Source: a virus
Lineage: Duplodnaviria; Heunggongvirae; Uroviricota; Caudoviricetes
Reading direction: 5' to 3' (one strand)
IMG/VR virus record: IMGVR_UViG_2541047734_000008
Coordinates: 1 to 45,329 of that record
Length of the DNA stretch: 45,329 nt
Position 1 is the first letter of the stretch, and every line of letters begins with the position of its first letter. The translations under genes were made by a program, and so were the position numbers. Shown piece after piece: positions 4,774-33,028 of the stretch. The notes beneath the pieces are model-generated. The model was given only the letters and a program-made list of their open reading frames with translations. It had not been told where the DNA came from and made no database searches.

Positions 4774-4890
4774 TCACGCAGGGAAAATATCTTTCCCCCT
4801 CCGGCGTTCTCACCACGAAGCCGCACGACTCTGCTGGCGCACATCGCCGGGCGTGCGCCAGAATCGCTGATTCTGTCTCTGTCATGGGAT

Positions 4891-15622: not shown

Positions 15623-15633
15623 AATGACCTCGG

Positions 15634-16370
15634 TTAAAGCGAGCGGATGCCCACGCTGATCAGATGTTCAGACAGATCCAGCTCCGGTTCACCACCATTG
15701 ACCAGCATCCGGCTCATTGCTGTAAACATCGCAACAGGGCCGTCGATTTTGGCTTCCAGCGTGGATTTATTCGGGAAGATATTGTCGTTTTTGTCCGGTT
15801 TTACCGTAACGTTAGACATCATCCAGTTCATGACCGGATGATTGCTGTGATGGAAACGCCCGGCATAGACCAGTGATTCCGTTTCCTTCATGGCCTCTGA
15901 CAGATTGCGAACCGTCTGCGGAACCTCCACCAGCGGTATCCCTTCTTCAGCCAGTGCCAGGCTGAACTGCATCGCGCTCCACGGGTCAAATCCCAGTTCC
16001 CTGAGGTTTTCACCACCAATCCATTCCAGTAAGTCACTTTTTATCTGAGCATGATCGATAACATCACCATCCGTCAGAATCAGCTTATCCATCTCCGCCC
16101 ACTTCCGGTAAAGTTCTGCCTGCTGCCGCGAGCATCGTTCCAGCCGTCCTTCCGGAAGCCAGAATTTAAAATCGGCATGAACATGCCCGTTATCCGTTCG
16201 CCAGAGTTTTGCCGCCGCACAGATATCAATCTTATGAGCAAGGTCAACGCCGACCCACATGGGATACGTTTTCAGCTCATGTCGTGGGGCAATGTATTCG
16301 CACTTCTCCCACTTAATCATGTCCATCCAGGCAGACTCTGCTGTTACCCACACATTCATGTGTTTGGTAA
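15634..16370 (-). pseudogene. Prophage terminase large subunit, C-terminal (nuclease-domain) fragment
   Basis: 241 aa ORF (..NVWVTAESAWMD..VGVDLAHKIDICAA..) aligns to the last ~243 aa of the intact island TerL; in-frame upstream codons ..NILTKH end at a stop inside island DNA; no ATPase domain. Confidence 0.85.
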
Positions 16371-16651
16371 GAATATTTCAAGTTTTTTAAAATCACCTGT
16401 ATATCAATCATTTAACATGAAAAAACAGTCTTTATAAATCATCGAGCAATACACAGCGCAATACACGTATCTGTATTGTTTTAATGCTGATACACACCGT
16501 TTTTTGATACAGTGATTCGACCTACCATCGCGAAGCATTTTTTATTTCTTGTGTGTAACAATCTGACGAGGTGAGCACTCAAAGAGATAAGAGGCAGTAG
16601 AAATTTCGATCCCCCCTGAATGCAATTTTTCGTATATATATACAAAACAGT

Positions 16652-16810
16652 GCGGGTTATGCGGGTTAGCGGGTTATCTTCGCGTGCTAAGTATTTTTTA
16701 CTCTTTAATATCAATACGTTAAAAAACAACGTATCTAAATATCAGCCAGAATGTAACCCGCAAGACATTCAAAATAACCCGCAAACACCACTCAAATAAC
16801 CCGCAAAAAC
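16652..16810. repeat. Repeat cluster near island left end: GCGGGTTA x3 tandem (16652..16677) and ATAACCCGCAA x3 in opposite orientation spaced ~22 bp (16755..16810), flanking an AT-rich core
   Basis: Directly visible 8-11 bp repeats in a ~520 bp noncoding stretch downstream of island terL. Confidence 0.7.
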
Positions 16811-16885
16811 ATCCCTGAAAGTGGGTGCCGATAATACTGAAAATTTATTCCATTAAATGAGCATTATCCTCTCTCATCCATTCCG

Positions 16886-18547
16886 TTACACACCATCAAA
16901 CGTCGCAAGCCGCTCTTTGTGGTTGTCGCTCATATCAAATGCAAATTCTTCATGCTCTGCCTGGAATGTGCCAAACGCCATCAGCGCCGCAACGCTCGGG
17001 TCTATCTTGTTGGATGATTTTTTCTTGTTCGGCTTGATATTGGCGTTCGCGTCACTCTGCATCACAACATTACTCATTGACCAGGCCAGCACCGGATCAC
17101 CACGATGCACAATCACCTTCCGGTTAACAAAAACTTCGAACGATTTCGCCGCCGGACTGAAACGAAGGTACGTTTGCGGGAACGGCTCCACCTCAAATCC
17201 TGCGCCCTGTAGCTGCGTCCTCAGGTGCGTGGCGTTCCATGTATCGAAACCCACCAGCCTGATATTGAAATTCTCTGCATCCGCCATGATGTCATCACGG
17301 ATACGGTCATAATCAATGCAGTCACCCGGTGTTGTGCGTATCCAGCCCGCCTTTACCCACTGGCGATAGATGGCGCGGTTTTTATTGGCGGGGTTCTGTA
17401 GCTGAAATTCCGGCAGATAGTGACGGGAAACCAGCATAATCTTTTTACCGACCGGAAAGGCATAGCACACGCTGGAAATATCGCTGGTTGATGATAAGTC
17501 CAGCCCCGCGTAGCACTCCTGCCCGTATAAATCCGCCTCCGCGAACGTTCCGGCGCACTCCGCCCATGCACCGTTACCCATCCACGGCGTGGCCCCCTGA
17601 CACCAGATATTGAATCGCTTGGTGAGCATTTCCACCCACTGCGACGGAATACCCCGCGCTTTCTGGATGGTTGAGGCCAGTTTTTCACGATCGACGGAAA
17701 CATCGATATTGGGATTCGCCTTTATCCACATCGCCGGATCGTCAACCTCGCTTTCATCATCCAGCTCGTAAATCAGCACGAACATGGATTCGTTCACCTC
17801 TTCACCATCCAGTATCTGGCAGCAATAGTCGTAGTGTTGTTTACAGGCTGAAACAACGTTGCTCCCCGATGTGGTGATGGCAAATAATAACCCCTCCGGA
17901 CGCGCCCCCATTCCCAGTTCAAGCGCGGAATAAACCCCGTTGTCAGGGTGCAGGTGATATTCATCCACAATGGCAAGACTCGGGTTTGTACCTTCAATGG
18001 TTGCCGCTTTTGCTGCCAGTGGCTTTAACAGGCTGTTGGTTTTCGGGTGTATCACCTTGTGTGCCTGAATATTTACCCGCTTTCGCAACGGTCGGGATAA
18101 AAGGCACATCTGACACGCATCATCAAACACGATCCGCGCCTGATCACGACTCACGGCGGCGGTGTAAATATCCTGCTGCCCGTTTTCCATAACCAGAAAC
18201 CAGTTAGCCAGGATAGCGGCGACCGTGGATTTGGCATTTTTTCGCGGCACTTCAATGAATGCGCTGGTGTATTTGCGCCGTCCGGTGGCCTTAACCTTAA
18301 AGCCCAGGATGCACGCAAAGGCGAACTGCTGCCACGGCTCCAGCTCAATGGGGCTACCGCGCATTGCGCCTTTTACGTGCGGACACACCCTGGAAAAGGC
18401 AATAAACCGCTCCACGACCTCCGGATCGAACGTGTAAAGGGGGTTTTCAAGGTCAGAAAAATACCGTTTAACGGCCTGTTTCAGTCGTTTACAGGCCGTA
18501 ATTTTGCCGTTTTTTACGCCTTCTGCGTACTCATGCCAGGCGGTCAA
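16886..18547 (-). CDS. Island terminase large subunit (intact)
   Basis: 553 aa; ATPase N-domain and nuclease C-domain; homologous along its length to the two prophage terL fragments. Confidence 0.9.
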   Translation of the reverse strand: MTAWHEYAEGVKNGKITACKRLKQAVKRYFSDLENPLYTFDPEVVERFIAFSRVCPHVKGAMRGSPIELEPWQQFAFACILGFKVKATGRRKYTSAFIEVPRKNAKSTVAAILANWFLVMENGQQDIYTAAVSRDQARIVFDDACQMCLLSRPLRKRVNIQAHKVIHPKTNSLLKPLAAKAATIEGTNPSLAIVDEYHLHPDNGVYSALELGMGARPEGLLFAITTSGSNVVSACKQHYDYCCQILDGEEVNESMFVLIYELDDESEVDDPAMWIKANPNIDVSVDREKLASTIQKARGIPSQWVEMLTKRFNIWCQGATPWMGNGAWAECAGTFAEADLYGQECYAGLDLSSTSDISSVCYAFPVGKKIMLVSRHYLPEFQLQNPANKNRAIYRQWVKAGWIRTTPGDCIDYDRIRDDIMADAENFNIRLVGFDTWNATHLRTQLQGAGFEVEPFPQTYLRFSPAAKSFEVFVNRKVIVHRGDPVLAWSMSNVVMQSDANANIKPNKKKSSNKIDPSVAALMAFGTFQAEHEEFAFDMSDNHKERLATFDGV

Positions 18548-18890
18548 GCTCGTCCTCTTCCTCTGTTTCCGGTGGATTTCTGCGGCGACTTACCGGGTCA
18601 AAACCCAGCAAAGAAGCCATTTTGATCATTATTCTTTCCGCGTCAGCCTTTGCGCTCAGGGCGGGGTTTCTGCTCTCGCTGCCCTGACTGTTAACAATGC
18701 TGAACCCGCGCGTGGCAAGGTCTTCGACGGCTTTGCGGTATATGGAGTAGTTAACGCAATACAGCTCCAGATTGCTCCAGTCGGCGGGGGTAAGGTCTTC
18801 CCGTCCGGAAAGCTGGCGCGATTTTTCCTTCCACTGCCTGACCGCGATTTCATCCAGGTAAGCGGGGGCTTTTGGTGGTCTTGCCATGTT
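18531..18890 (-). CDS. Island terminase small subunit (P27 family)
   Basis: Start placed at MARPPKAPAYLDE.. (compare prophage TerS MSGPPKTPP..); the ORF track's longer start at 19028 adds non-protein-like residues. Confidence 0.75.
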   Translation of the reverse strand, partial: NMARPPKAPAYLDEIAVRQWKEKSRQLSGREDLTPADWSNLELYCVNYSIYRKAVEDLATRGFSIVNSQGSESRNPALSAKADAERIMIKMASLLGFDPVSRRRNPPETEEEDELDRLA

Positions 18891-19175
18891 CTTTTTTCGC
18901 CCAATTATTTTCAAAAAAAATCCCGTGCACAAAAATTTGAGGAGGCGGTCGGTGTCCGGCAGGGACGGTTTCGTCCTGAAAACCTCCCCCACCCCCTCTG
19001 ACAGCCTCACCAGCGATTGCGAAAACATTCCATGACCTCGCGGTCACGGTCGGTTAATCGCTTCGCTGTGGTGCGTTCTGTGCGCCCTGTCCTGTTAGCT
19101 TTGTGCCCTGTCTCCTGTGTCTTCCATAAGTCACGCTGCCTTATCAGTCCACGTATCAGCCTGTTTTGCTCCTGT

Positions 19176-19616
19176 TCAGTCATCATCGCCATACATCCAG
19201 TCGTTACGATGTGCCGCCCGTTCTTCCTGCTCGCGATACATACCCGCCTTACGGTTCGCTTTCGTGGCTGGATCTTCCCGTGTCGTCTTACGGTTGTGGC
19301 ACGTCTGGCACAATGCCTGGTGGTTCCACTCAGGCCAGAAGAGAACATCACCGCCGCCATTGATGGGAATGATGTGATCCACCACAAGAGCTGGCGTATA
19401 AATCCCCTTAGCCAGACAACGCACGCATAACGGGTTTTTGCTCAGGTACAGGGCGCGGTATTTGTCCCACTGTCGGGAATACCCGCGCGCGCGGCGGTGT
19501 CCCCGTCTGGCATCCTCTGCACGCCATGCAGCCCGCCTGTGCTCTTCACACTTGCCGGACTTCACGCGCTTATTACAGCCCGGCTCAGTGCATCGCCTTA
19601 ATGGTTGCCACGGCAT
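19176..19616 (-). CDS. Island HNH endonuclease
   Basis: 146 aa, Cys-rich N-terminus, ..VDHIIPINGGGDV...NHQALCQTCHNRKT.. HNH motif; located upstream of terS. Confidence 0.8.
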   Translation of the reverse strand: MPWQPLRRCTEPGCNKRVKSGKCEEHRRAAWRAEDARRGHRRARGYSRQWDKYRALYLSKNPLCVRCLAKGIYTPALVVDHIIPINGGGDVLFWPEWNHQALCQTCHNRKTTREDPATKANRKAGMYREQEERAAHRNDWMYGDDD

Positions 19617-19915
19617 CAGTACACCCCCACATCACGATAAACCGACCAGAGCGCAGAAATAGCCATAGGCAGTTCAGACTGCTCCACTGGTGAAACTGCT
19701 TCCCTGTTCTCGTACAGGAAAGCGATGTACATCAGGCAACCAACACGCATTGCCGGGGTAAATTCCAGCCCGTCTTCAAAACGTTTCCCGATATGCTTCT
19801 GGCAGGCTTCCAGCGCCGCATCGGTATACATTTTCAGAAGTTCGCCTTCTCCGGAAAAGTCATCAAGGCGAAGATGTGCCCTGACCTCATCAGGTGTAAT
19901 TTTTTCTTCACTCAT
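19616..19915 (-). CDS. Island head-tail connector protein (gp6-like)
   Basis: Start at MSEEKITPDEVRAHLRLDD..; gp6-like. Confidence 0.6.
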   Translation of the reverse strand: MSEEKITPDEVRAHLRLDDFSGEGELLKMYTDAALEACQKHIGKRFEDGLEFTPAMRVGCLMYIAFLYENREAVSPVEQSELPMAISALWSVYRDVGVY

Positions 19916-21122
19916 CTTTTTCACCTTTAATTTCCACCGTCTGCTTCCATGCCTGGCTGAATTCGTCGCCACCTTCGCGCGGCGGCATCCCCTCACGTTC
20001 GCGGGCTTCGTTCGGATTCATGATCCCGTTCTTAATCCCTTTCTCATACGTGGCGTAACGCTCGGTAGGGGTGGCGCGCAGTAAATCGGCTGAATCAAAC
20101 TCAACCAGATAACGGGTACCAGGTACGGGAGAAGCCACCAGCAAAGCGGCCTTGATTTGCTGTTCGAAGTTCGCCAGCCACGGACGCATTGTCATAGTCA
20201 GAAACGCGCGGCTTGCCTCACTGAAATTGCTGTAGGTGCTGTTGCTGTATTCCTGAAGAAAAATCGGCGACACGTTGAACATACGGGCAATGTCTTCAAT
20301 GGAGAAGCGACGGGAGGCCAGCCATTCCGCATCCTGGTTACTCATCCCCAGTTGCCTGTAATCCATGCCCCCTTCAAGGATTGGCGTTTTTCCGGCATTT
20401 TTCGCCCCCTTATAGCGTTCCAGAGCATCTAATGCCTGTTTACCTTTCACGCCGTCCAGCCATTCGCCTGACGTGATAATCCCTGCCGCCATCATGCCAT
20501 CTTTCATAATGCTGGCTCCGTGGCGCTGTTGAGCAAGGCCAAGCCCCAGCGCCTCACGGCAAATCGTGACAGGGGAGCGCCCCAGAAAGCCATCATCCGA
20601 GGCATAGCGGAGATGCAGAACTTCTTCCTGTAAATACGTGCGTACCGTTCCTGTATAGGGTTCGGTGATGGTATAGCGGTATTTGTGTGCGCCTGTGCGT
20701 TCCGGTACAACACACCCCGGCGCATAAGGATGAAGTGATTTTGGCTGACCGTCCCGCCCCCACTCAATAACCGCATAGGCGTTACCGTTCAGCAGGCAGT
20801 GACGCATCATTGTGCGTTTAAACTGGTAAGGTGTCTGGCACGAATTAGGCTGCTCATTCAGCAGAATATCGACCGGGTGACTGTCCAGCCATTCCCGCGC
20901 CTCCCTGCCCTTGTCATTGCGTACCAGATACAGATAACACGGCATCGTGGCCACCGCCTCAGCGATGACAGAAACCGCGTTCATCACAGCAGGCAATGAT
21001 TCAGCCGTCCCGGCAGAAACATATTCTCCGGATCCGGTATTCGGTACGCCGGACAGCGCCAGAAAATCATCAATGGACAGGTTACGCAGATCGCTTTTTT
21101 TACGACTAAAAGGCCACCACAT
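19908..21122 (-). CDS. Island portal protein
   Basis: About 405 aa from MWWPFSRKKSD..; HK97-type portal, homologous in places to the prophage portal (..RPMILEMGLDW.. versus ..TPILEGGMDY..). Confidence 0.85.
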   Translation of the reverse strand: MWWPFSRKKSDLRNLSIDDFLALSGVPNTGSGEYVSAGTAESLPAVMNAVSVIAEAVATMPCYLYLVRNDKGREAREWLDSHPVDILLNEQPNSCQTPYQFKRTMMRHCLLNGNAYAVIEWGRDGQPKSLHPYAPGCVVPERTGAHKYRYTITEPYTGTVRTYLQEEVLHLRYASDDGFLGRSPVTICREALGLGLAQQRHGASIMKDGMMAAGIITSGEWLDGVKGKQALDALERYKGAKNAGKTPILEGGMDYRQLGMSNQDAEWLASRRFSIEDIARMFNVSPIFLQEYSNSTYSNFSEASRAFLTMTMRPWLANFEQQIKAALLVASPVPGTRYLVEFDSADLLRATPTERYATYEKGIKNGIMNPNEAREREGMPPREGGDEFSQAWKQTVEIKGEKDE

Positions 21123-21123
21123 A

Positions 21124-21684
21124 TCACAACCCCGCCAGTTCAGCCCAGCGATGACGATTATTTCCTGTCGGGCGTAATTCAGGGTGCTGTGCAAACAACG
21201 AACGGTGGGCAATCTCCACGCCGGATTCGGGATAAGCAGGCATCGACGTTATCGTGATTTCACGGAGTTCTGCGGCGGTAACAGTGCGCAGATACGGTTT
21301 TTGCGCGATATTCCACTCTTCGCATAATGCGCGAAAGCCAAAGCTCATTCCTGTAATGTCGCCACGCTCCACCAGCGTAAGCACATCTTTTCCAAGCTGG
21401 GTATCAGGCGGTGTCAGTTCAAAACGTAGCCCGGTGTTGTCCTCAGTCAGTACCAGTGTTCCGGATTTGGTGCGCCCCAGCAGTCGGGTATAGTCATGCT
21501 CATACAGGCAGCGCACATCATTACCCGCCGCCAGATAGTCAGCAAAAGCCCCCGGCGTGAACTGTTCGCGGAATTCGTCCCAGATAATTTCTGAAAGGCT
21601 GTTCCAGCGAACGGCATAACCCACCAGTTTTTTATCGCTGGCGGTCAGTTCAGATGTACGGATTTCAAAATCGGTATTTTGCAT
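21124..21684 (-). CDS. Island prohead protease
   Basis: Start at MQNTDFEIRTSEL.. (Met 73 of track ORF), ..KKLVGYAVRWNSLSE.. Confidence 0.8.
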   Translation of the reverse strand: MQNTDFEIRTSELTASDKKLVGYAVRWNSLSEIIWDEFREQFTPGAFADYLAAGNDVRCLYEHDYTRLLGRTKSGTLVLTEDNTGLRFELTPPDTQLGKDVLTLVERGDITGMSFGFRALCEEWNIAQKPYLRTVTAAELREITITSMPAYPESGVEIAHRSLFAQHPELRPTGNNRHRWAELAGL

Positions 21685-21733
21685 CGGTGTACTCCATAAA
21701 GCTGAAAAAGGAGGCCGAAGCCCCCTTTGCTCA

Positions 21734-22879
21734 TTACTTGCCAGCCTGAATTTCCAGAATCTTGATGGCGTTCGAATCCACCACACCACCGCCCAGATAT
21801 TTCTGGGTATAGATGTTAATGAATCCAGGTTCGCTGAAATCCGGACGGGTACGCGTACCGGTTTCATGGTCAACGATGAAATAACCGCGCTTAAAGTCAC
21901 CTACTGCAATCACACCGTCCGGCATAAATTCCAGATATTCAACCGGAAGCCCCAGCAGAGAATCAGGATCACCAGCCTGTAAACGATCGCGCCAGATGTA
22001 ATCACCAGTGGCATTTTTCAGTTTTTGTGCGGAGGCGGCTGTATTTGAGTTCATCACCCATACAGCTTTTTTGCGGTACTTATTGCGCAGCGTAAATTTC
22101 AGGTCAATCAGCATGTCGGCGCTGAGACTGCCAGTAACTTTTTTCGTCTGGAGCGTACCGAAAGGACGGGTTTTGTCGTTATCCGCAGTGCGCGGAAAAG
22201 CCAGGAAACCTTTAGCTTTTTTCTCGCCATCACCGGAAACCAGATCCGTTTCTTCGGTATCAACGAAAGTGTCGCCAATTTCAGAAGATAACCAGCTCAT
22301 AATATCGACTTCGGAAAAATCGATAATTTCCTGAGTGGTTTTTGGGTAAGCGTAGATCGGATACAGGCGGATACTGACTTCATTCAGTTTTGGGGTTGCC
22401 GTCTGGTTACGTGTAGTGCCTTCTTCACCGTGTTCAACGACCGCGCCCCCGGCAGAAACCAGTTGCTTAAATTCATTGCTGTGAATGGTTTTAACAGTAC
22501 AGATTTTACGCATCACCGATTCATCAGAAAGCTGACGCATAATTTCTCTGTTCAGTTCCGGGATAACCGTATAACCACCATCAGCCGGGACACTGCCGGA
22601 CAGGTTGCGGGTTTCCCCGGTCAGAATGTAAGAGCGCAGTTCGTCTTTGGTTATTTTCTCTTCGACGGAAACACCAGGCTGGTTACGTTCTTCATCAGCC
22701 ACAGATTCGAGGCGGGAAATTTCTGTGTCGAGGGAATCGGCTTTTGCACGCAGTTCATCAAACTGTTTGCCCTCGTCATCGTTCAGGCTGCGGTTTTCAC
22801 TGTCGGCTTTTTCCAGCAGGGATCGCATCTGGTTTTTCAGGGCGGTTTTTTGCTGGCGGAGTTCGATTAATTTCTTCAT
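21734..22879 (-). CDS. Island major capsid protein (HK97 family)
   Basis: 381 aa; coiled-coil delta domain then ..KGFLAFPRTADNDKTRPFGTLQ..GYFIVDHETGTR..; parallels the prophage capsid. Confidence 0.9.
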   Translation of the reverse strand: MKKLIELRQQKTALKNQMRSLLEKADSENRSLNDDEGKQFDELRAKADSLDTEISRLESVADEERNQPGVSVEEKITKDELRSYILTGETRNLSGSVPADGGYTVIPELNREIMRQLSDESVMRKICTVKTIHSNEFKQLVSAGGAVVEHGEEGTTRNQTATPKLNEVSIRLYPIYAYPKTTQEIIDFSEVDIMSWLSSEIGDTFVDTEETDLVSGDGEKKAKGFLAFPRTADNDKTRPFGTLQTKKVTGSLSADMLIDLKFTLRNKYRKKAVWVMNSNTAASAQKLKNATGDYIWRDRLQAGDPDSLLGLPVEYLEFMPDGVIAVGDFKRGYFIVDHETGTRTRPDFSEPGFINIYTQKYLGGGVVDSNAIKILEIQAGK

Positions 22880-23152
22880 GAAGGTTTTCTCGTATTGGTT
22901 AAGATTCAGGACGTGAAACCAACACGGAGGGAGCGCCGCCCGACACTCTCGGCATCTCGCAGATCAACCCGGCATCGCGCAGGGGTCAGGCGGCATTGTG
23001 GCGGCTCACGTCTGAGTGCCACACGCCAACATATACATAAAAATCAGTATGTAAACATCAGCCAGAATCACCGAACAACCTGGAACAACCACGAACAAAT
23101 AATTTACAAAACCTGAAAAAAAGACCCGGGAAAAATCCGGGCCTTTATCGCT

Positions 23153-23401
23153 TTATTGTTTCACTGGATCCCGCATTCTGCGTCTTATTTTCCACAGATA
23201 TTCGATCATCGCTTCCACCTGCTCACGGTTGGTTGCGAAAATTTCCCCGGTCAGTGAGCTACGCAGAAAATCATGATGATCCACAACAAACAACGCATCG
23301 GAAGAAAGCAGACGGCGATATTTTTTTGCTGTCGTGGTTTCCAGATCATCAAAACCATGAAACTTTTTATGTTGCTGGACTTCTTCAAATGTCACTGGCA
23401 T
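23153..23401 (-). CDS. Island hypothetical protein
   Basis: 82 aa ORF in operon orientation. Confidence 0.4.
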   Translation of the reverse strand: MPVTFEEVQQHKKFHGFDDLETTTAKKYRRLLSSDALFVVDHHDFLRSSLTGEIFATNREQVEAMIEYLWKIRRRMRDPVKQ

Positions 23402-23934: not shown

Positions 23935-23970
23935 GCCTTCCCCTGTAATTACTCTGTTCGCTGTTGTGAA

Positions 23971-24396
23971 TTAAAACGGTATGTTATCCCCGTACAGGTC
24001 ATCGTGCTGGCCTGTCTGTTGTTTTGCCCTGTTCAGTGCGTCAGTAGCTTGGCTCTGCTGGCCTTTTTTGCCGCCCGGTCGCGCCGTTCGCGCACTGATT
24101 ACGCTGTCTGCGATGACCTGCCAGCCCTGCCGCGTTTCGCCGTTCTGGCCTGTCCACTGGCTCACCTGCATGTTACCCGCCACGCTCACCAGTTCGCCTT
24201 TGTGGTGCTTTGCCAGTGCGTCGGCCTGTCTGCCAAACGCCAGGACGGATAACCACATCGTCGCCGTTCCGTCATCTGCCTGGCTGCACGGCAGGGGAAC
24301 CGCCATACTCGCCATCGCCATTTGTGTCCCCTTGCTGGTGGTCTTTAACTGCGGGTCAGCCACCAGCCGCCCGTAAGCCGCTATCTGTGCTGTCAT
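23971..24396 (-). CDS. Single-stranded DNA-binding protein (island)
   Basis: 141 aa OB-fold-like with acidic C-terminal tail ..DDLYGDNIPF. Confidence 0.75.
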   Translation of the reverse strand: MTAQIAAYGRLVADPQLKTTSKGTQMAMASMAVPLPCSQADDGTATMWLSVLAFGRQADALAKHHKGELVSVAGNMQVSQWTGQNGETRQGWQVIADSVISARTARPGGKKGQQSQATDALNRAKQQTGQHDDLYGDNIPF

Positions 24397-24644
24397 GCTG
24401 TCTGCTCTCCGGTTTTAACGTTGATGGTTGTCACCTGTTCCGCTTCGGCAATCTCCCGCTCTGTCAGCGTGGCAAAATTTGCCGCCGCCGTGGTCATGAA
24501 TGCGCTTATCAGTTCGGGATGTGCTTTCGCGTATCCTTCTCCGGCATGGCGGTCTATTGTTCTGATTGCCACCTTTAAGGCATGCTCTGTCATGTCTAAT
24601 GCGCGATATTTTGGCGCTGTCTTATCTCTGGTTTTTCTGGTCAT
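24393..24644 (-). CDS. Island hypothetical protein
   Basis: 83 aa; overlaps ssb start. Confidence 0.4.
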   Translation of the reverse strand: MTRKTRDKTAPKYRALDMTEHALKVAIRTIDRHAGEGYAKAHPELISAFMTTAAANFATLTEREIAEAEQVTTINVKTGEQTA

Positions 24645-24648
24645 TCCT

Positions 24649-24848
24649 CACTGCTCCCCACTTTTACTACCCACTTTTTGAAATTACCCAACGTCTCCCC
24701 ACTTCTTTTTTTTGTGATTCTAACGTGATGTTTTTCAATGTATTTTTTATTCCCCACTTTTTGGGGTATATACAGGTGGGAAAGTGGGGAATCGCGTTTC
24801 AATTTTGTTAAATTCCCCACACTCCCCACTTTTACTACCCACTTTTTA
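24649..24848. repeat. Iteron cluster / candidate island replication origin next to rep
   Basis: TCCCCACTTTTACTACCCACTTTTT at 24649 and again at 24822; additional CCCCACTT copies in both orientations; AT-rich centre. Confidence 0.7.
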
Positions 24849-26261
24849 CAGTGGGCGCACGTCATCACCGTCAATAGCAATAACGCCATCACCTTCCAGC
24901 TTGTACAGCCAGCGCCGGAAGTGTTTCATCTCATACCCCAGCTTTTTCATATCATCGCGCAACAACGGAATTGTGCATTTATCGCCGCGCTGTGTGCGTG
25001 AACGGATACAGCCCCATAGCGCGGCATGATTCTCCGTCTTGTTCCCGGCTTCCTCGATGCGCTCCAGTTCAACAGGTGGGCGCGGCTTATCCACAACCAC
25101 CAGCGACGTGATTAACTCCCCGTCAGTGTCGGTAAAAAGCTCTACCACGCGTAAATCATATGCAGCCTCTTTCAGTTCCTCCGCGTCCTTCATTTTGGTA
25201 CAGGAGATAACCAGGGCTTCACTGTCCGCACCTTCACGGCGAATACGGTATTCAGCGTCCAGAGATGCACGGAATGCACTGGAACCACGCGCTCCCTTTG
25301 TTTCATCCTTGCCGGAATGGTGAACCACCAGCACCGTGGCCCCTGTGCGTCGTTTCAGTTCGTCACATCCACGGATAAACGCCCCCATATCCCGCGCGTC
25401 ATTTTCATCATTACCGCCAAAACACCGCGCCAGCGTATCCAGAATAATCATGCGTACCGGTTTACCCGTTTCCCTTTCAACCTGGCGGGAAGCGATGACC
25501 ATTTCATCGACATCAAGCGGGACTGCCGGAAAAATCGGGCGGTTTACCAGGTACAGATTTTCCACCCGTTTATCATTAACGATTTCCCATGCCTTGATAC
25601 GGCGGGGGACACCAATGCCACCTTCACCGACAACATACATCACCGAACCATGCGCCACCCTGCGGCCTCCCCAGTGGCGACCCGTGGCAACATGACACGC
25701 CCAGGAACACGCGAGGAACGATTTATAGGAACCGCTCGCGCCGTATGTGCTGCACAATGAATTAGCCGGAATCACGCCCTTAACGACATAATCAAGCTGT
25801 GTGTCGTATCCTGCAGATCCAATACTCATTGGTAGCGTGGTTTTTCGCTGGCTGTATTGCTCGTCAGTAAGTATTTCCCCGCGCTCTGCCTGTTCGCGGA
25901 TCCGTTGCAGGTAGTCGTGCCAGTTCTCCAGCTTCTGGTTGTGCATTCCCTCAGGGTAATAATTCGCATCCCGTACACCTGCCGCCGCCAGCTTTTGCCC
26001 GATAGCATTAATATTTGACGGCTTGATGTGGCCTGCCTTGTACAGCCGGACACAATAGCGACCATCGTCGATAATTTTCAGGTCTGCCAGTTCGTCAAGC
26101 TGGCTGTCTCCAAGCCATACAGGCGGAACATTGTCGCCAGCAAGTCGCCCGTCCTGCTCCTGCCATTGTTTCGCGTGCGCCCAGGCATCACTACCCGCAA
26201 AAATAATGACTTCGGTCATTTTGTCGTGCGGCTGTTTTTTTAAGTTCGGTGCCAGTTTCAT
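24846..26261 (-). CDS. Island replication initiator: primase/helicase-type Rep (RecA-like AAA ATPase)
   Basis: 471 aa; Walker A-like GASGSYKSF, Walker B MIILDTL; sits beside iterons as PICI pri-rep genes do. Confidence 0.7.
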   Translation of the reverse strand: MKLAPNLKKQPHDKMTEVIIFAGSDAWAHAKQWQEQDGRLAGDNVPPVWLGDSQLDELADLKIIDDGRYCVRLYKAGHIKPSNINAIGQKLAAAGVRDANYYPEGMHNQKLENWHDYLQRIREQAERGEILTDEQYSQRKTTLPMSIGSAGYDTQLDYVVKGVIPANSLCSTYGASGSYKSFLACSWACHVATGRHWGGRRVAHGSVMYVVGEGGIGVPRRIKAWEIVNDKRVENLYLVNRPIFPAVPLDVDEMVIASRQVERETGKPVRMIILDTLARCFGGNDENDARDMGAFIRGCDELKRRTGATVLVVHHSGKDETKGARGSSAFRASLDAEYRIRREGADSEALVISCTKMKDAEELKEAAYDLRVVELFTDTDGELITSLVVVDKPRPPVELERIEEAGNKTENHAALWGCIRSRTQRGDKCTIPLLRDDMKKLGYEMKHFRRWLYKLEGDGVIAIDGDDVRPL

Positions 26262-26557
26262 TTTTTCCCCCTGAATCCGTTAAGCATTTTTCTTATGGCC
26301 TGAATATTTGCCCGTGCCTTCTCTTTGCTGGTGGGCTGATTGCGCGGCGCGGTCTGTACCAGGGAAAAATCACGCCGGAACTGATAAACAGGCATCACAC
26401 AGTCATAGCCGTACCCATCACGGCGGTAAATAACGCACCGTCCCGCCACGCTTTTAATCGTTACCGTGCCGCCATAGTTATCCCGGAAAATATCGCCGGG
26501 GCGGATTTCAGGCCGAACGGAGCCGCTGGCAGTAAAGCCAGAATTTTTCTGTTTCAT
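26258..26557 (-). CDS. Island hypothetical protein
   Basis: 99 aa ORF, operon context. Confidence 0.4.
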   Translation of the reverse strand: MKQKNSGFTASGSVRPEIRPGDIFRDNYGGTVTIKSVAGRCVIYRRDGYGYDCVMPVYQFRRDFSLVQTAPRNQPTSKEKARANIQAIRKMLNGFRGKK

Positions 26558-26562
26558 GGTTT

Positions 26563-26772
26563 TTATTCCTCTGCGCGGGCCTTGTTGTGTATTTCCATAA
26601 CCGCGTTTAATTCATCAATAACCGGGGTTAACAGAGTGCTGAAAGCAGAAAATAAATCCCCCCCCTGTTCGGCATGAACTTCGGTTAATTTAATTAATAC
26701 TGCTTTCATTTCCAGTGCCCGGTTTAATGCATTCTCAGAATGAATAAGAACATCGAAAGGGATTTTATCCAT
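26563..26772 (-). CDS. Island hypothetical protein
   Basis: 69 aa ORF. Confidence 0.35.
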   Translation of the reverse strand: MDKIPFDVLIHSENALNRALEMKAVLIKLTEVHAEQGGDLFSAFSTLLTPVIDELNAVMEIHNKARAEE

Positions 26773-27025
26773 GGCTTACATCCTCCGTGAATTTTCTTCT
26801 GTACCGTGCCTCTGCCACATATTCCGCATAGTCCGACGCAATATTGAGAATATCGCTACCCGTTCCTGAATGTTCGGCGGTTTCCAGTAAAAAACTTGCA
26901 GCTTTTACCATGTCAGCAACACATAACAGCGCAATATCTGTATCTTCCGGTGCGCCATCAAATTCCTGTTTCAGGGCATTAAAACGATCATCACGCATAA
27001 CCCCCCCCATTTTCACAATCAGCAA
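26765..27025 (-). CDS. Island hypothetical protein
   Basis: 86 aa ORF. Confidence 0.35.
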   Translation of the reverse strand: MLIVKMGGVMRDDRFNALKQEFDGAPEDTDIALLCVADMVKAASFLLETAEHSGTGSDILNIASDYAEYVAEARYRRKFTEDVSHG

Positions 27026-27230
27026 TTAGGATGGCTTTAGCCTCATTCAGTGCCATATCAGCGGTAAGCTGTGCGTAGGCCAGCGAATGGGGGATTATTT
27101 CCCCTGTATATTCCGTCTCTCTGGTAATGTGTTTTTCTGCGGTTGCTGCCGTGCATGAAATATCAATCAGCGCGTGCATCAGCGTTTTGATGGCTTCGGC
27201 GGCTGCGTCCGGACGGGTGTTATTGCACAT
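26991..27230 (-). CDS. Island hypothetical protein
   Basis: 79 aa ORF. Confidence 0.35.
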   Translation of the reverse strand: MCNNTRPDAAAEAIKTLMHALIDISCTAATAEKHITRETEYTGEIIPHSLAYAQLTADMALNEAKAILIADCENGGGYA

Positions 27231-27426
27231 GGCGCACCCCCTGACGAATACGGGCGGCGAATACCATCACACAGCCAGCCGGGGATTGCTGGCGTGCTTC
27301 CTGTTCGCTGGTGGCCTCAATGGTAATCACGCGCGGTTGTGCCGTGCTCAGGGCGATAAAACGCCAGATATATTTATTCAGGTTGTGCGAGTCCCGCCCT
27401 TGCGGGTGTGTGGTATGATTTCTCAT
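27220..27426 (-). CDS. Island small protein, first gene of leftward operon
   Basis: 68 aa from MRNHTTHPQGRDSHNLNKYIWRFIALSTAQP..; GAGG RBS; the track's 358 aa extension upstream is not protein-like. Confidence 0.45.
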   Translation of the reverse strand: MRNHTTHPQGRDSHNLNKYIWRFIALSTAQPRVITIEATSEQEARQQSPAGCVMVFAARIRQGVRHVQ

Positions 27427-27502
27427 AGCTACCTCGATACTCTTGCTATCGTTGGTGGTTAGACGCCCTGCATGTGTTGCGAGCACTGCGGGGCGTTGCT
27501 TA

Positions 27503-27603
27503 ATTTGAGTGACAAAACTCAAACTGTGCGCACAGATTAAAATCATGTGTGCGCACATGTCAATACTTAACATCTCATTTTTTTTGCTGTATTGTGTGCG
27601 CCC
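27503..27603. promoter_or_regulatory. Divergent regulatory region with palindromic operators TGTGCGCACA
   Basis: TGTGCGCACA at 27525..27534 and 27549..27558 (within CATGTGTGCGCACATG), half-site GTGTGCGC at about 27593; lies between divergent gene starts 27426 and 27632. Confidence 0.55.
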
Positions 27604-27631
27604 ATAAAGTCCATTTAAGTGAGGTGCATCA

Positions 27632-27829
27632 ATGTCTAGCGGTAACACAAACAACAAATCAGCAAAGAAAAATATTCGATTCCCACATGAGCTTATAGAT
27701 GGGATTGATGCCAGCGTTGAACAAGAAAAATTAACTAATCCTAGTGCTAATTTTTCCGCATGGGTCTTAGATGCCTGTGGACGCAAATTAAAATATGAAC
27801 AGCGCCGGAAGGCCAAAGAATCAGAATAA
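27632..27829 (+). CDS. Small ribbon-helix-helix (Arc/MetJ-like) DNA-binding protein, candidate island regulator
   Basis: 65 aa; ..KKNIRFPHELIDGIDASVE..NFSAWVLDACGRKL.. beta-strand plus two helices pattern. Confidence 0.5.
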   Translation: MSSGNTNNKSAKKNIRFPHELIDGIDASVEQEKLTNPSANFSAWVLDACGRKLKYEQRRKAKESE

Positions 27830-27871
27830 TCACTATCAGCGCCGTGGTGTGAGTAACTACGGCGCATTGCT

Positions 27872-28060
27872 ATGCAGGACAACACAATGACCGATAAAGA
27901 ATTGACCAAAACATTATCACCGACACGGAAAAGACGGCGCAGAAAGATAGAGCATGAATCAGAAAGATTCGCACCTTGTTCGTTTGCTCTTGAGAAATTC
28001 CTTAAAGAGCGCAGGAAAAAGCTCTCGTTGCAAACCCTGGAACGAACCAAATCTGACTGA
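27872..28060 (+). CDS. Island hypothetical basic protein
   Basis: 62 aa ORF downstream of the RHH gene. Confidence 0.35.
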   Translation: MQDNTMTDKELTKTLSPTRKRRRRKIEHESERFAPCSFALEKFLKERRKKLSLQTLERTKSD

Positions 28061-28126
28061 TCACATTGCCCACCAGCCGCAAATGTGGCATTGTTGGTGA
28101 TGCTTTTGTTTTCCCTTGTTCCCACT

Positions 28127-28155
28127 GGCGACCCTTTTGCGGTCGCCTTTGTTTT
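28127..28155 (+). terminator. Intrinsic terminator
   Basis: GGCGACC-CTTTTGC-GGTCGCC followed by TTTGTTTT. Confidence 0.6.
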
Positions 28156-28251
28156 GCCTGTTATCCGGCAATAGTGGCGCTTCGTCACCTGTCTGATATA
28201 ATTCCACAGCTTATATTCATTTTTTGCGCAGTAGGTTAATTGTTCGCAAGG

Positions 28252-28282
28252 GCGCTCCGGCAACGGGGCGCTTTTTGTTTTT
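28252..28282 (+). terminator. Intrinsic terminator (GNRA-loop hairpin)
   Basis: GCGCTCCG-GCAA-CGGGGCGC followed by TTTTTGTTTTT. Confidence 0.6.
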
Positions 28283-28440
28283 ACCCACCAGCACAATAAA
28301 AATCTTCATTTTCCATTTTTGTAAAATTTCATGCTTTCCGGACGACTGGTCATATGTCATTTTTTAGCAGAAGATTTTGCCTTGCTGGTGGGTAGCTTCC
28401 CGGTCAACACGATGTACCGTATAATCAACACCGCGTGTGG

Positions 28441-29019
28441 TTACTGAATACGCTCACCAAAGTAAAACTCAGGCTGGTATTCACGTATCAGCCTTTTTTC
28501 TTCTTCCTCCAGCTCACGCTTTTTGCGCTTACATGCCTGTAGCTCCCTCCCCTTCTCACTGGCACTTATCTGGTATTGCTCTTTGCGGCGGGAAAAATCC
28601 TGTAATGCGCCCCACGGGATACCATAAGCCCCCGTTTTTCTGATACCCGGTATCACATTTCTGAATACCCAGTTACTGAAACGATGAGCAAATGTGCCAG
28701 GCGTCGTTGCTTTGCGGCTGCGGGCTATTAGTTTGTAGAAACCTGACTCGGAGATAATGCTCATATTCTGATTTCCTCCGGGGGTGTAAGTTAAATTTAC
28801 TCCCTTTTCGTCATCATCAAGCATCTGCAACGCCGTACGCGAATTGGTCAGTTCCAGCGCAGCACAAACATCCTTTGCAACAAACCACGGATCGCCGTTT
28901 AGATACACCACACGAACATCCACGCCATCAAAGCGCAGAACGACCAGATCACGAATATCACAGAATTTTTTCACATGACGTGCGTCACCCTTGCCCGTCA
29001 CGGCAATATTTTTATTCAT
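28441..29019 (-). CDS. Bro-N domain protein (antirepressor-like)
   Basis: 192 aa; ..FDGVDVRVVYLNGDPWFVAKDVCAALEL.. Bro-N signature. Confidence 0.7.
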   Translation of the reverse strand: MNKNIAVTGKGDARHVKKFCDIRDLVVLRFDGVDVRVVYLNGDPWFVAKDVCAALELTNSRTALQMLDDDEKGVNLTYTPGGNQNMSIISESGFYKLIARSRKATTPGTFAHRFSNWVFRNVIPGIRKTGAYGIPWGALQDFSRRKEQYQISASEKGRELQACKRKKRELEEEEKRLIREYQPEFYFGERIQ

Positions 29020-29076
29020 TGCTTTTTACCTCACATACAAAAAACCCCGCATTGCGTGGTGCGGGGTTGTCGGTAA

Positions 29077-29355
29077 TTACTTATTGGCGTTTTTGTATGG
29101 GCTGTTTACTTCCTTTACTCCTGGCGGATGCATAACCCACCAGAGCACATCAGAGAGCAACCAGGAAACAGACACTTTCCCTAAATGAGCACGAGCAGGA
29201 AATGCTCCCTCCTGTTCAAGTACCCAACGTCTGCTTCTTGAAAGCCCGGTACGATTGGCACACTCATGTTCGCGTATACGGCGATCATACGGTTCGCCAT
29301 GATCTTTCAGAATCTGAATGCGTTCTTCGGGTGTAGGATAAATAAATTTTTGCAT
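29077..29355 (-). CDS. AlpA-family transcriptional regulator (second copy)
   Basis: Start at MQKFIYPTPEE..; AlpA-type HTH. Confidence 0.6.
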   Translation of the reverse strand: MQKFIYPTPEERIQILKDHGEPYDRRIREHECANRTGLSRSRRWVLEQEGAFPARAHLGKVSVSWLLSDVLWWVMHPPGVKEVNSPYKNANK

Positions 29356-29418
29356 AAAAATATCACCTATAAAAAAACCCGCCAAAAGACGGGTTGATTA
29401 TATCTCATTTAATTTAGC

Positions 29419-29652
29419 TCAGGGTTTCCATTCACCTTTTACCCATTCCAGCACCTCAGATAAGCGCCAGACTTTTGTTTGTGGGCCAATACATATTTTT
29501 CGTGGAAATTTTCCTTCCTTTTCAAGTAACGATCTGTGTCTCCTGCCAAGAGCGGTTAACCATGCACATTCATCTTCCTTAATCATCCTGTCGATTGTTT
29601 CATCATTTTCAAGTTCTTCACGCGTAACTATTTGAATCATTACTGTCACCAC
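29419..29652 (-). CDS. AlpA-family transcriptional regulator
   Basis: 77 aa; ..KICIGPQTKVWRLSEVLEWVKG..; immediately downstream of int. Confidence 0.7.
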   Translation of the reverse strand: MVTVMIQIVTREELENDETIDRMIKEDECAWLTALGRRHRSLLEKEGKFPRKICIGPQTKVWRLSEVLEWVKGEWKP

Positions 29653-30841
29653 TAATTTGCTTATTCAGATAGTCGTACCACCAGTTCATAGCTTCTTTTT
29701 TTCTGTCCATATACTGGCTTCTGTTATAAACCCCGGCAACACCGCCTAATGTGTGCCCAAGCAACTGTTCAACCACATTATGTTCAAAACCATGATCACT
29801 TAGTTTTGTGGCAAACACTCTTCGCATATCATGCGCCGTCCATTTCTCCGAGTGTTTCATCCTTTTCCATGTCTTACCGATAGTTACGCTTGCCGTACAC
29901 TGACGCATATCAAACCCAATCACATTTTCTTTGTTACCTGTTATTTTTTTTAACGTAACTAACCAGTTAAACATGCCATCAGGAATCGGTCTGATTATTT
30001 CCCTGCCATTTTTGCTATGATCAGCGGGAACGCGCCATAATTTCTTATCAAAATCCCACTCTACCCAGGACGACAGTAATACTTCTGACAGTCGACAACC
30101 AAAAACTACCAGGAAACGTAAAATAATTCGGTTTTCATATGATAATTCGTGATTGTCATAATCAGTATTAATACTTCGCCATAAATCTCTGATTTCATCA
30201 TCTGTTAAAACCCTGCTTCTTCGCGCAGACTTTTTTCCCACATCACAGACCTCAAGATCATCAATTTCATGACTAATCGCGTATTTTCTTACCCTACAAA
30301 ATTTAAGCGCCTGTTTTGATATACGCAACAAAGCTCCGGCCTGTACAGGTGCTACTTTTTTTATTTTGTCAAAACACTTAATCCACATAGATATAGAGCA
30401 ATCACTAAGTGGTACATGACCAATCACCGGATAAATATGTTTACCAAAGCACTGCCTGATATGTTCTGCTCCCCTACGCTTATCCATTGCATAATTATCA
30501 AGCCAGTATTCAAGTGCCTCACGAACGGTAACAGGTTGCAAGGTGGCTTCCCGTTCAATTTTTATCTGAATCCGTGGATCTCTGCCCTCCGCAAGCCAGG
30601 TTCGACACTGATCGCGCATCTCTCTCGCTGATTTGAGACTCAGATCAGGATATTTTCCAAGTGTCAGCCAGATGGGCGCGGTTCCCCTTCCCGCCAGTCT
30701 GTAAAAGAAAACAAAACTAACACATCCGTATTTACTGACCCGTACCGAAAGCCCGTTACCATCAGCGATGGTTTCCTGCCTCTCACTCCTGCGTCCAAGC
30801 AGGGAACGAAGTTTTTTATCGCTCAGTTTGTTTAGCGCCAT
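29618..30841 (-). CDS. Tyrosine integrase (P4-type)
   Basis: Start at MALNKLSDKKLRSL..; C-terminal catalytic region ..HDMRRVFATKL...LLGHTLGGVAGVYNRSQY..; adjacent to the island boundary. Confidence 0.9.
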   Translation of the reverse strand: MALNKLSDKKLRSLLGRRSERQETIADGNGLSVRVSKYGCVSFVFFYRLAGRGTAPIWLTLGKYPDLSLKSAREMRDQCRTWLAEGRDPRIQIKIEREATLQPVTVREALEYWLDNYAMDKRRGAEHIRQCFGKHIYPVIGHVPLSDCSISMWIKCFDKIKKVAPVQAGALLRISKQALKFCRVRKYAISHEIDDLEVCDVGKKSARRSRVLTDDEIRDLWRSINTDYDNHELSYENRIILRFLVVFGCRLSEVLLSSWVEWDFDKKLWRVPADHSKNGREIIRPIPDGMFNWLVTLKKITGNKENVIGFDMRQCTASVTIGKTWKRMKHSEKWTAHDMRRVFATKLSDHGFEHNVVEQLLGHTLGGVAGVYNRSQYMDRKKEAMNWWYDYLNKQISGDSNDSNSYA

Positions 30842-31012
30842 GTGATTTATAACCCGTTTTTGCAATACACAGTGCAATACACAAATGATGAAAACAGCCA
30901 GAACCTTCCAGAAAAAACAAAAACGACGAACAAGAAAAAATCTTTTTCTTTCATTTGGTTACTAAAAAAATCAGGACAGGTCGCACTGTTGTTACGGCGT
31001 GATGTTACTTTC

Positions 31013-32040
31013 TTGGTAAAAAAATTCACCCGCGCAGAGACCTGTTCTTTCGCTTTTTTCGCCAGGCGACGCAGATCATCCCAGCGTTTACAGATGCCCA
31101 GGCCGGGATTCGCTTTCTGCCAGACCGTTTCATCAAACGGATCATCTCCCTCATCGAGGGTGTAAATAATCGCAAAGTAGGAGTCGTCTTTTACCGCGCC
31201 CTCCACGTCGCTGTTATAGCCACGCAATACCTTGATGGCGTAATCACGCTGCTCGTAACAAATCCCTTCCTTGTTAAACCCTGCCGTGGTGATACCAAAT
31301 AAAAGGGACTGCAGACGGGCACCGGTTGCCGTTTCCAGAACGTCCCACACGTCACGGGTTTTATGTGCATGCAGCTCATCAATAATGGCGCAGTGGATGT
31401 TCAGACCATCCAGGTTGTTTGCATCCGAAGAAAGCGGTTCAAATTTTGATGCGCTCTGCTCCTGGTAAATCGCCAGCTTGTTGAAATCAAACAACCGCCC
31501 GAGTGTCGACCGGGCTTTTCTGACCATATTTTTGGCGTCTTCAAACACGATTCTGGCCTGGTCACGCGTGGTTGCGGCTGAATACACCTCAGCTCCGCCT
31601 TCACCATCTGCCCCCGTCATATACAGGCCGATACCCGATGACAGAGTTGATTTTGCGTTTTTACGGGCGACTTCGTTGTACGCCGTCCGGAACCGGCGCA
31701 CCATCACCGGACGTCCGCTGCCATCGCTGCGCATGACAACTTCCCCGGTCTCTTCATTGACCAGCGGAATGACAAAACCAAAAATATTAATGAGGATAAA
31801 TACATGCCAGTCCATCAACTCAATGGGCTGGCCTGCCAGCGCCCCTTTTACATGAGGCACAAATTTGTAGAAATTCAGGATGTGCTGCGCACGGGGTTCA
31901 CTGAAATAAATCCCCCGCTCTTCGCCGTACTTCAGATCATCAAGAAAACGCTGGCAGGCCAGGCGGACAAATTCGCCAGCAACAATTTCTCCTGCAACAA
32001 CACGTTCGGCGTAGCGGATCCCGTCAGCCACTTTTGCCAT
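31013..32040 (-). pseudogene. Prophage terminase large subunit, N-terminal (ATPase-domain) fragment
   Basis: 397 aa ORF with Walker-type ATPase region; homology to island TerL residues 1 to ~310 ends at ..ARVNFFTKK, then about 45 unrelated codons run into island DNA near the integrase. Confidence 0.85.
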
Positions 32041-32522: not shown

Positions 32523-32670
32523 AATCGGTCTTACCTATCAATCGTTTGTTCACATTTCCAAAAAAAAGTTTTCGAACCTGCGGCGATGTGAGGAAGGGTC
32601 AGGCGGCGGTACTGAGCAGCCAGGGTTGCAGAGATTTGACCCGCCCCTCCCCTACAGATGGGAACTGTTA

Positions 32671-33021: not shown

Positions 33022-33028
33022 AAATACC

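Follow-up and report, generated by a model that had tools for sequence, protein, structure and literature searches.

The 45,329-nt stretch of DNA analysed here (the window; IMG/VR record IMGVR_UViG_2541047734_000008) carries a lambdoid Escherichia coli prophage with an HK97-type head and a lambda-type tail, and the gene for the large terminase subunit (terL) of this prophage is interrupted by an island of 14,649 bp. The island (16371..31019) is very probably a helper-embedded, capsid-forming satellite of group A:Terminase_1:246, in which the body of a capsid-forming phage-inducible chromosomal island (cf-PICI) of the EcCIEDL933 type is joined to its own tyrosine integrase and inserted at a 7-bp core in the terL of the surrounding prophage, its helper. 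A first-pass annotation of the window had already recognised a satellite island seated in a packaging gene instead of at a chromosomal attachment site. That placement stands but is no discovery, being the defining property of the helper-embedded PICIs (HE-PICIs), among which this site group has been catalogued; the element, the site, the core, the arm motifs and near-identical copies were all published in 2023 with a supplement (PMC10111431).

The helper terL lies on the minus strand in two pieces, an N-terminal fragment at 32040..31020 and a C-terminal fragment at 16370..15634. The direct repeat TTACCAA (minus strand) is found at both breaks, at plus-strand coordinates 16364-16370 and 31013-31019. 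Deletion of 16371..31019 in silico, with one copy of the core retained, produced a single uninterrupted terL open reading frame (ORF) of 585 codons (junction ...RVNFFTKHMNVWVTAESAWMD...), in which Pfam places TerL_ATPase at residues 112-268 and TerL_nuclease at residues 283-563. The two halves rejoin with neither gap nor overlap, as had been proposed, and the limits of the island given in the first-pass annotation were correct to the base. The earlier description of an ATPase-bearing N-terminal part and a nuclease-bearing C-terminal part also holds, but the break lies about 60 residues inside the nuclease model (model start at residue 283) and not at a domain boundary. The crossover falls within codons 341-343, and the protein reads NFFTK/HMNV across it; the NFFTKK given earlier was in error, since its second lysine is encoded by the island. 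The sequence of the restored terL junction is TTTACCAAACACATG / GTGAATTTTTTTACCAAACACATGAATGTG, and that of the attP junction is GAAATATTCTTACCAAGAAAGTAACATC.

With the island in place, the truncated terL ORF consists of 343 helper codons and 54 island codons ending in a TAA at 30849-30847; the 54 island codons are unrelated to terL, and the 3′ fragment has no terL sequence upstream of it. Since attP supplies no replacement sequence for the target gene, terL is non-functional for as long as the site is occupied, and since the core is the same on both sides, excision would give back terL exactly. Judged from these junctions, the insertion is a case of conservative site-specific recombination at the 7-bp core. 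Two other possibilities were considered and rejected. The island does not appear to target its own terL, because TTACCAA is missing from that gene (16886..18547) and the homologous position reads CTCACCAAGCG. Inteins, introns and homing endonucleases are common in terminase genes, but this insert is 14.6 kb long and carries an integrase and att repeats.

The same prophage was found at 99.9-100% identity, with terL intact, in E. coli FCI1 (NZ_CM172811.1), and the window corresponds to the FCI1 prophage plus exactly two insertions, the island and an IS66-family insertion sequence (IS) element. Over 1758 nt the rejoined terL has 0 mismatches to the intact gene annotated in FCI1, and homology to the empty site begins exactly at 31013. 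When 5,426 complete E. coli genomes were searched, the 600-bp rejoined junction was present in one piece in 905, in many of them at 100% identity, and the occupied junctions were whole in 36 (attL) and 34 (attR); in all remaining genomes the matches to the attL and attR queries end at the core. The uninterrupted site is also carried by the isolated or induced phages vB_EcoM-606R7, phi467, Evi and PhiR49_2 (95-99% identity). Related prophages that lack the island, against which the first-pass annotation had suggested comparing the junction, do exist.

These observations bear directly on the idea that the 14.6 kb are an ordinary part of the phage lineage, such as a duplicated head module or a mosaic segment, with terL being either two genes or a decayed pseudogene. 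Such an origin would be in keeping with the Pfam families that helper and island share for HNH, TerS, TerL, portal, protease and capsid, but these paralogues are only 27-41% identical, a 7-bp direct repeat and an integrase lie at the boundary, precisely these 14,649 bp are missing from the isogenic prophage, terL is unbroken in the 905 genomes and the four phages, and the island occurs in no phage record. The idea retains a negligible probability. Grounds named beforehand for abandoning the satellite reading, namely a rejoined terL that is not continuous or the same DNA as a normal part of related phages, were both absent.

No record in the phage collection carries the island, and the only matches there were partial, at ~75%, to short records resembling packaged cf-PICIs. 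Three records filed as phages match the head and packaging module only, again at ~75%: a 16.5-kb 'induced prophage' named vB_KppS-Ant (H182, LR881103.1), and H184 and H185, which are short records from Salmonella and E. coli O157:H7 ATCC 43895. All three are satellite-sized or fragmentary and are probably packaged cf-PICI genomes that were deposited as phages.

Besides being precise and reversible in silico, the insertion recurs in other genomes. Among the complete E. coli genomes the best match to the island was 99.1% identical over 79% of it, and none contained an exact copy; the closest islands share 97.9-99.1% DNA identity over 79-96% of the island. An island of 97.9% identity sits in the terL of a different prophage, one that encodes Stx1d, in strain 2014C-3075 (L001, NZ_CP027447.1 1361571-1408646). 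In that composite stxA1d and stxB1d lie about 5 kb upstream of terS, and the satellite consequently interrupts a packaging gene of a Shiga-toxin phage.

[quoted passage not shown] Two terminase sites, A:Terminase_1:245 and :246, are named there and the supplement adds :132; for group A:Terminase_1:246 the core "ttaccaa" and a size of about 15 kb, in E. coli, are reported, and most members are listed with ttaccaa. Supplementary File 1 of that study includes two of our closest matches: Eco146.15.A_Terminase_1_246 (AGTD01000001.1/1112532-1127509; E. coli UMNF18, core ttaccaa), which is 99.1% identical to the island (match H44), and Eco8512.15.A_Terminase_1_246 (CP027447.1/1392647-1377567; strain 2014C-3075, core given as 'tcacgaa'), which is 97.9% identical (match H41). 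The junctions of the window agree with the published attL and attR alignments, and the Eco15611 rows match throughout.

The published satellites carry a doubled motif, tgTGTATTGCantgTGTATTGCa, in two co-oriented copies, one upstream of the attP centre by 81+/-2 bp and the other downstream of it by 132+/-2 bp (PMC10111431). In the attP reconstructed for the island, one copy of the clade-specific motif TGTATTGC-N4-TGTATTGC ends at -79 and the other starts at +135 relative to the core centre. Over 398 aa the island integrase shares 50% identity with that of the element 11capE (from NRG857c), against 40-42% with chromosomal cf-PICI integrases, and the island with its int is 97-99% identical to catalogued members of the group; on pairwise identity the integrase is assigned to the HE-PICI clade and to the subclade of its site group. 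The site lies in a prophage late gene, its att sequences can be mapped, and reference genomes hold the uninterrupted attB. The int, alpA and replication genes are all on the minus strand, co-oriented with the helper terS, terL, portal and tail genes, and the four zones typical of HE-PICIs follow in order: integration (Int, AlpA), Bro, replication and late.

The island thus agrees with the rest of group A:Terminase_1:246 in target gene, codon, size of about 15 kb, arm motif and spacing, and orientation in the late operon, and nothing of kind sets it apart. The replication module varies within the group, being a RepA-type helicase in the island and in 2014C-3075 and of DUF927 or primase types in most others, as do the helper and its chromosomal site (tRNA-Ser/mtfA type here; potB and 'S' sites in PMC10111431). 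Another relative is Eco567.11capE, the HE-PICI that has been studied experimentally, in the capsid gene of the icd prophage of E. coli NRG857c, which shares the integrase clade, the arm motif, the embedded and co-oriented position and the four zones. Its target is instead gene E, which encodes the capsid of a lambda-type head; the element measures 11 kb, and its late zone contains only capsid and decoration genes with no terS or terL; it is presumed to use the cos machinery of its helper (PMC10111431), whereas the island is self-sufficient for heads and packaging.

The prototype cf-PICI, found between roxA and phoQ on the chromosome of EDL933, is EcCIEDL933, which forms small capsids of its own and packages only itself (Alqurainy et al., bioRxiv 10.1101/2022.09.08.507074). 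In that study helper mutants in the homologous packaging genes lost transfer of the phage and not of the satellite, while tail mutants lost both. The island shares with EcCIEDL933 the gene order int-alpA-...-DUF4222-rep-SSB-...-capsid-protease-portal-adaptor-HNH-small ORF-TerS-TerL, the lack of tail and lysis genes, and the size (14.6 kb against 15.4 kb). Its proteins are nearer to those of EcCIEDL933 than to those of its own helper: TerL is 93% identical to the former and 31% to the latter, with 88% and 27% for TerS, 84% and 41% for HNH, 81% and 32% for the portal, and 75% and 36% for the capsid. The protease is 63% identical to that of EcCIEDL933 and gave no match in the helper (E <= 1e-3), and the adaptor is 57% identical, with no helper comparison. 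The two elements differ in site (chromosomal roxA/phoQ for the prototype), in integrase (42% identity), in replication gene (a DUF927-type primase in EcCIEDL933, a RepA-type helicase in the island) and in two genes of EcCIEDL933 that the island lacks, one for a head-closure protein and a terminal one of 93 aa. They also differ in their relation to the helper, since EcCIEDL933 imposed no helper cost whereas the embedded island physically interrupts a helper gene.

Pfam scanning of the island identified Phage_integrase with an arm-binding domain, two Phage_AlpA, Bro-N, an AAA_25 helicase and SSB, followed in the late zone by Phage_capsid, Peptidase_S78, Phage_portal, Phage_connect_1, HNH, Terminase_4 and TerL. 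Phage_connect_1 scored 20.7, slightly under the Pfam cut-off of 21.2, and was confirmed as a head-tail adaptor by PHROG (Ad1, E 2e-28). No tail or lysis genes were found among the island ORFs by ORF list, Pfam or PHROG. The gene content read earlier from the ORFs (integrase, two AlpA, Bro-N, Rep, SSB, a capsid-to-TerL module and no tail genes) was borne out by both databases, and the connector that it included is present as the single recognisable head-tail connector gene.

Criteria for cf-PICIs were set by Alqurainy et al. and restated in 10.1101/2025.02.11.637232. The island, at 14,649 bp, lies within the required 10-18 kb and contains modules for integration, regulation and replication; its capsid, protease, portal, adaptor, HNH, TerS and TerL are its own and distinct from those of the helper; and lytic genes and a tail module are absent. 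It departs from the criteria in lacking the second head-tail connector, the head-closure protein, and in its site, which lies inside a prophage gene and not at a chromosomal attachment site of its own that is never occupied by prophages, a rule that served as a search criterion in the original paper. The prophage-gene site is the respect in which the island is the helper-embedded variant. Because SatelliteFinder accepts cfPICIs with 10/11 components ('Type B'), the missing head-closure gene does not bar the island from the operational family. The reading of the first-pass annotation, a capsid-forming satellite inserted in the helper terL, is upheld by the homology to EcCIEDL933, the precise in-frame excision, the isogenic empty site and the absence of the island from phage records.

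A complete head and packaging module with an integrase and replication genes might also be what remains of a second temperate phage that inserted into the first prophage and lost its tail and lysis genes, and the cf-PICI papers themselves call such elements hard to distinguish from prophages. The gene order, however, follows the four-zone PICI layout with an inward-facing int and not the early/late layout of a prophage, the tail-less design of about 15 kb recurs at yifB, preA and roxA-phoQ with late modules that are 94-99% identical, and satellite behaviour has been demonstrated experimentally for the homologous EcCIEDL933. A defective phage is for these reasons a very improbable source of the island, which is better described as a dedicated satellite.

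The late module (16879-23419) shares 98.7% DNA identity with a tail-less element in yifB of strain TUM9757 and 96.8% with an element in preA of strain E300010. As these elements have the late module in common and carry different integrases, the island can be viewed as a cf-PICI body with a different integration module. The EcCIEDL933 head-closure protein gave no tblastn match in the island, and Pfam and PHROG scans of its annotated ORFs returned one connector only. The regions compared were window 19616-21212 against 13896-15735 of the EcCIEDL933 locus (L007) for the head-closure gene, which would lie between portal and adaptor, and window 16371-16885 against L007 18480-18761 for the 93-aa gene. 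A gene of 93-94 aa lies downstream of terL in EcCIEDL933 and in the chromosomal relatives of the island and is missing from the island itself, where the stretch matching the 94-aa gene contains stop codons. In those relatives, at yifB and preA (L002, L003), the head-closure gene is missing too, but the small gene downstream of terL is present. A head-closure protein is encoded by the helper at 11447..11785, and the island lineage might borrow it. A cos site common to helper and island was considered and rejected, since the HNH-terS intergenic regions of the two show no meaningful similarity.

The sequence of events proposed for this satellite draws largely on published sister systems. On induction of the helper, the composite of helper and satellite would excise and replicate. 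Late transcription of the helper, made resistant to terminators by the antiterminator protein Q, would then read from terS and the terL 5′ fragment into int and alpA, after which the satellite would excise and restore terL exactly. The satellite would replicate from its own origin with its own helicase and SSB, build its own small capsids, and package its DNA with its own HNH, TerS and TerL, taking from the helper only tails, which it would join to its heads. The claim of the first-pass annotation that the island keeps its own packaging is likewise supported by analogy, with the helper packaging mutants studied for EcCIEDL933. A second feature may connect the satellite to helper expression. 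The TAA of the truncated terL lies 5 nt upstream of the int ATG (30841-30849, TAAATCACATG) with no obvious Shine-Dalgarno sequence, and the same stop-ATG arrangement occurs in 2014C-3075; translation of int may thus be coupled to that of the helper late genes. Fusions of terminase and int occur in some genomes (supplement, PMC10111431).

While integrated, the satellite is expected to block helper packaging, as the first-pass annotation had stated. Its further claim, that helper packaging is abolished, is less well supported than a delay or reduction, because the core is identical on both sides and because 11capE, after composite excision and replication following induction, excised from 42-98% of helper copies (PMC10111431). 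On balance, then, the helper probably suffers a delay or reduction. Precise excision that restores an interrupted gene has other precedents. The skin element in sigK of Bacillus subtilis and the Listeria prophage phi10403S in comK interrupt genes in this manner; as with the island, attP carries no replacement, the target is dead while occupied, and precise excision restores it. The concept of 'regulated gene integrity' is cited for HE-PICIs (PMC10111431), with the difference that here the interrupted gene belongs to a helper phage and the regulation would serve the satellite and not the cell.

Several points weigh against this account of the satellite and its life cycle. Excision, small capsids, the use of tails and the effect on the helper are argued from analogy for the whole terL site group, and the authors of the HE-PICI study recovered no virions even from their model element (PMC10111431). 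Every mutated gene of the EcCIEDL933 packaging module was needed for transfer, except gene 1792, the loss of which only reduces it (10.1101/2022.09.08.507074). Given that requirement, the lack of the head-closure and terminal 93-aa genes suggests that the island lineage may need more than tails from its helper, or may be defective. Finally, a tail gene of the helper carries an IS insertion, and the present copy may therefore be a relic in decay.

The last point can be taken further: the island may be a true HE-type cf-PICI that has reached a dead end here, both partners being inactive relics and the insertion a permanent packaging knock-out of the kind seen in prophage domestication. The IS66-family element, with its 8-bp target duplication, splits the helper gene for a K-like C40 peptidase, two EcCIEDL933 genes are absent from the island, and many HE-PICI helpers look truncated (PMC10111431). 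On the island itself, however, all ORFs are intact and 97-99% identical to copies in other genomes, and the att core and arm motifs are intact as well. The head-closure gene is missing from the chromosomal relatives too, which makes its loss a trait of the whole lineage instead of a sign of decay here, and tails could come from another resident or incoming phage. We regard a dead end as possible but rather unlikely.

The IS66-family element itself occupies 2234-4765 (2,532 bp), after about codon 40 of the K-like gene, which it divides into 4885..4766 and 2233..1602 on the minus strand. It is flanked by an 8-bp target duplication, GGAGATAT, at 2226-2233 and 4766-4773, has imperfect terminal inverted repeats (GTAAGCGTAAAC.../GTAAGCGTCAAC...) and contains three plus-strand ORFs (2319..2744, 2741..3091 and 3122..4735); PGAP names matching copies ISEc23. 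It is missing from the isogenic FCI1 prophage. In phage lambda, K is needed for tail assembly, and the insertion probably makes this helper tail-defective. Because the prototype cf-PICI requires helper tails, helper and satellite are probably immobile in this host unless another phage supplies tails.

Table 1. Positions of the satellite, its attachment sites and the adjoining helper genes (window coordinates).
Feature	Position	Strand	Remarks and basis
Helper terL 3′ fragment	15634..16363	-	Codons 344-585 and stop
Core TTACCAA, terL-distal (attR in island orientation)	16364..16370	-	Repeat; published attR alignment
Doubled motif TGTATTGCgcTGTGTATTGC	16446..16465	-	Ends 79 nt upstream of core centre
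Island large terminase	16886..18547	-	Pfam
Small terminase, Terminase_4/P27 family	18531..18887	-	Pfam
HNH endonuclease of packaging module	19176..19616	-	Pfam
Head-tail adaptor, Ad1/gp6-like	19616..19915	-	Pfam, PHROG
Portal protein	19908..21122	-	Pfam
Prohead protease, Peptidase_S78	21124..21684	-	Pfam
Major capsid protein, HK97 fold family	21734..22879	-	Pfam
ProQ/FinO-domain protein	23392..23934	-	Pfam ProQ, E 9e-25; between SSB and capsid
SSB	23971..24396	-	Pfam
Iteron-like direct repeats	24654..24848		Just downstream of helicase gene
Replication protein, RepA-type helicase (AAA_25)	24846..26261	-	Pfam
DUF4222 protein	26258..26557	-	Pfam
Three small conserved ORFs	26563..27230	-	PHROGs 2196, 2512/24341, 5146
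Two small ORFs (27632..27829, 27872..28060)	27632..28060	+	Sole opposite-strand genes of the island
Bro-N domain protein	28441..29019	-	Pfam; PHROG anti-repressor-type families
AlpA-family regulator 2	29077..29385	-	Pfam
AlpA-family regulator/excisionase 1	29419..29652	-	Pfam
Tyrosine integrase, arm-binding and catalytic domains	29618..30841	-	Pfam
Doubled motif TGTATTGCacTGTGTATTGC, candidate integrase arm-type site	30862..30881	-	Starts 135 nt downstream of core centre
Core TTACCAA, int-proximal (attL in island orientation)	31013..31019	-	Published attL alignment
Helper terL 5′ fragment	31020..32040	-	Codons 1-340, core follows; ORF scan, excision, Pfam
Helper TerS (32040..32522) and HNH (32671..33021)	32040..33021	-	Directly upstream of terL, same late operon

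The iteron-like repeats (Table 1) comprise three copies of ~19 nt spaced 83-85 bp apart and a pair of exact 26-nt copies separated by 168 bp, and are the probable replication origin of the satellite. In the region 27230-28440 the longest ORF (27220..28296, minus strand, 358 aa, TTG start) looks spurious, and the true genes appear to be the two small plus-strand ORFs, one of them YlcI/YnfO-like; the homologous position in relatives is annotated as YlcI/YnfO family. Two strong terminator-like hairpins follow this pair at 28127-28147 and 28248-28275, and a role of the unit in immunity or regulation is possible. P4-type immunity RNAs (C4/isrK) are found in some Bro zones of HE-PICIs (PMC10111431); a search of the whole window detected none at gathering score, and 26500-31100 gave none even at E<=1. 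A scan of 15600-33300 for promoters and terminators gave counts not above shuffled expectation, which carry no information on read-through. The place of the ProQ/FinO gene is taken by a PerC-family regulator in EcCIEDL933 and in the chromosomal relative at preA (L003).

The late operon of the helper runs on the minus strand through Q, four tRNAs, lysis genes, HNH, TerS, TerL, portal, protease, capsid, connectors and tail genes. The four tRNA genes (36018-36327, minus strand, between Q and the holin) were identified by ARAGORN as Gly-TCC, Thr-TGT, Lys-TTT and Met-CAT, and PGAP annotates the CAT tRNA as tRNA-Ile in FCI1. Rfam placed a sok antitoxin RNA and a DicF small RNA in the early region (39221-39396, minus strand, and 44877-44928, plus strand), and hokD lies beside sok in FCI1. 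The prophage also carries QueH, an epoxyqueuosine reductase (39464..40150), and an opposite-strand GNAT acetyltransferase (33474..33959).

Full-text literature searches returned only the original HE-PICI paper and reviews citing it for the terL-embedded group, with no experiment on the group and no explicit statement that its members are complete cf-PICIs homologous to EcCIEDL933. In no paper found by text searches were the union of a cf-PICI with an HE module, the helper cost, the coupling of int or the borrowing of a head-closure protein stated. The present analysis therefore makes small additions and does not describe a new kind of system: the link to cf-PICIs, the exchange of modules with the elements at yifB and preA, the absence of a head-closure gene, and the juxtaposition of the terL stop and the int ATG.

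Tentatively, these additions could be read together as a cf-PICI that acquired an HE integration module and thereby silences a helper function that it never needs itself, at a real cost to the helper, with int tied to late expression and the tails retained. This proposal is speculative. If it is true, each helper copy still bearing the island would be unable to undergo packaging, unlike with the commensal EcCIEDL933; expression of int would be tied to late transcription and translation of the helper through the terL stop and int ATG; and tails would still be made, as terminator-resistant late transcription crosses the island. Work on helper-embedded satellites is still limited to a single paper and one model element, from which no virions were recovered. 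In the terL group complete cf-PICI bodies occur together with helpers of medical relevance, among them the Stx1d prophage of 2014C-3075, and the group is thus suited to asking whether a satellite gates the packaging of a toxin-carrying phage, and how cf-PICIs swap integration modules between chromosomal and prophage targets.

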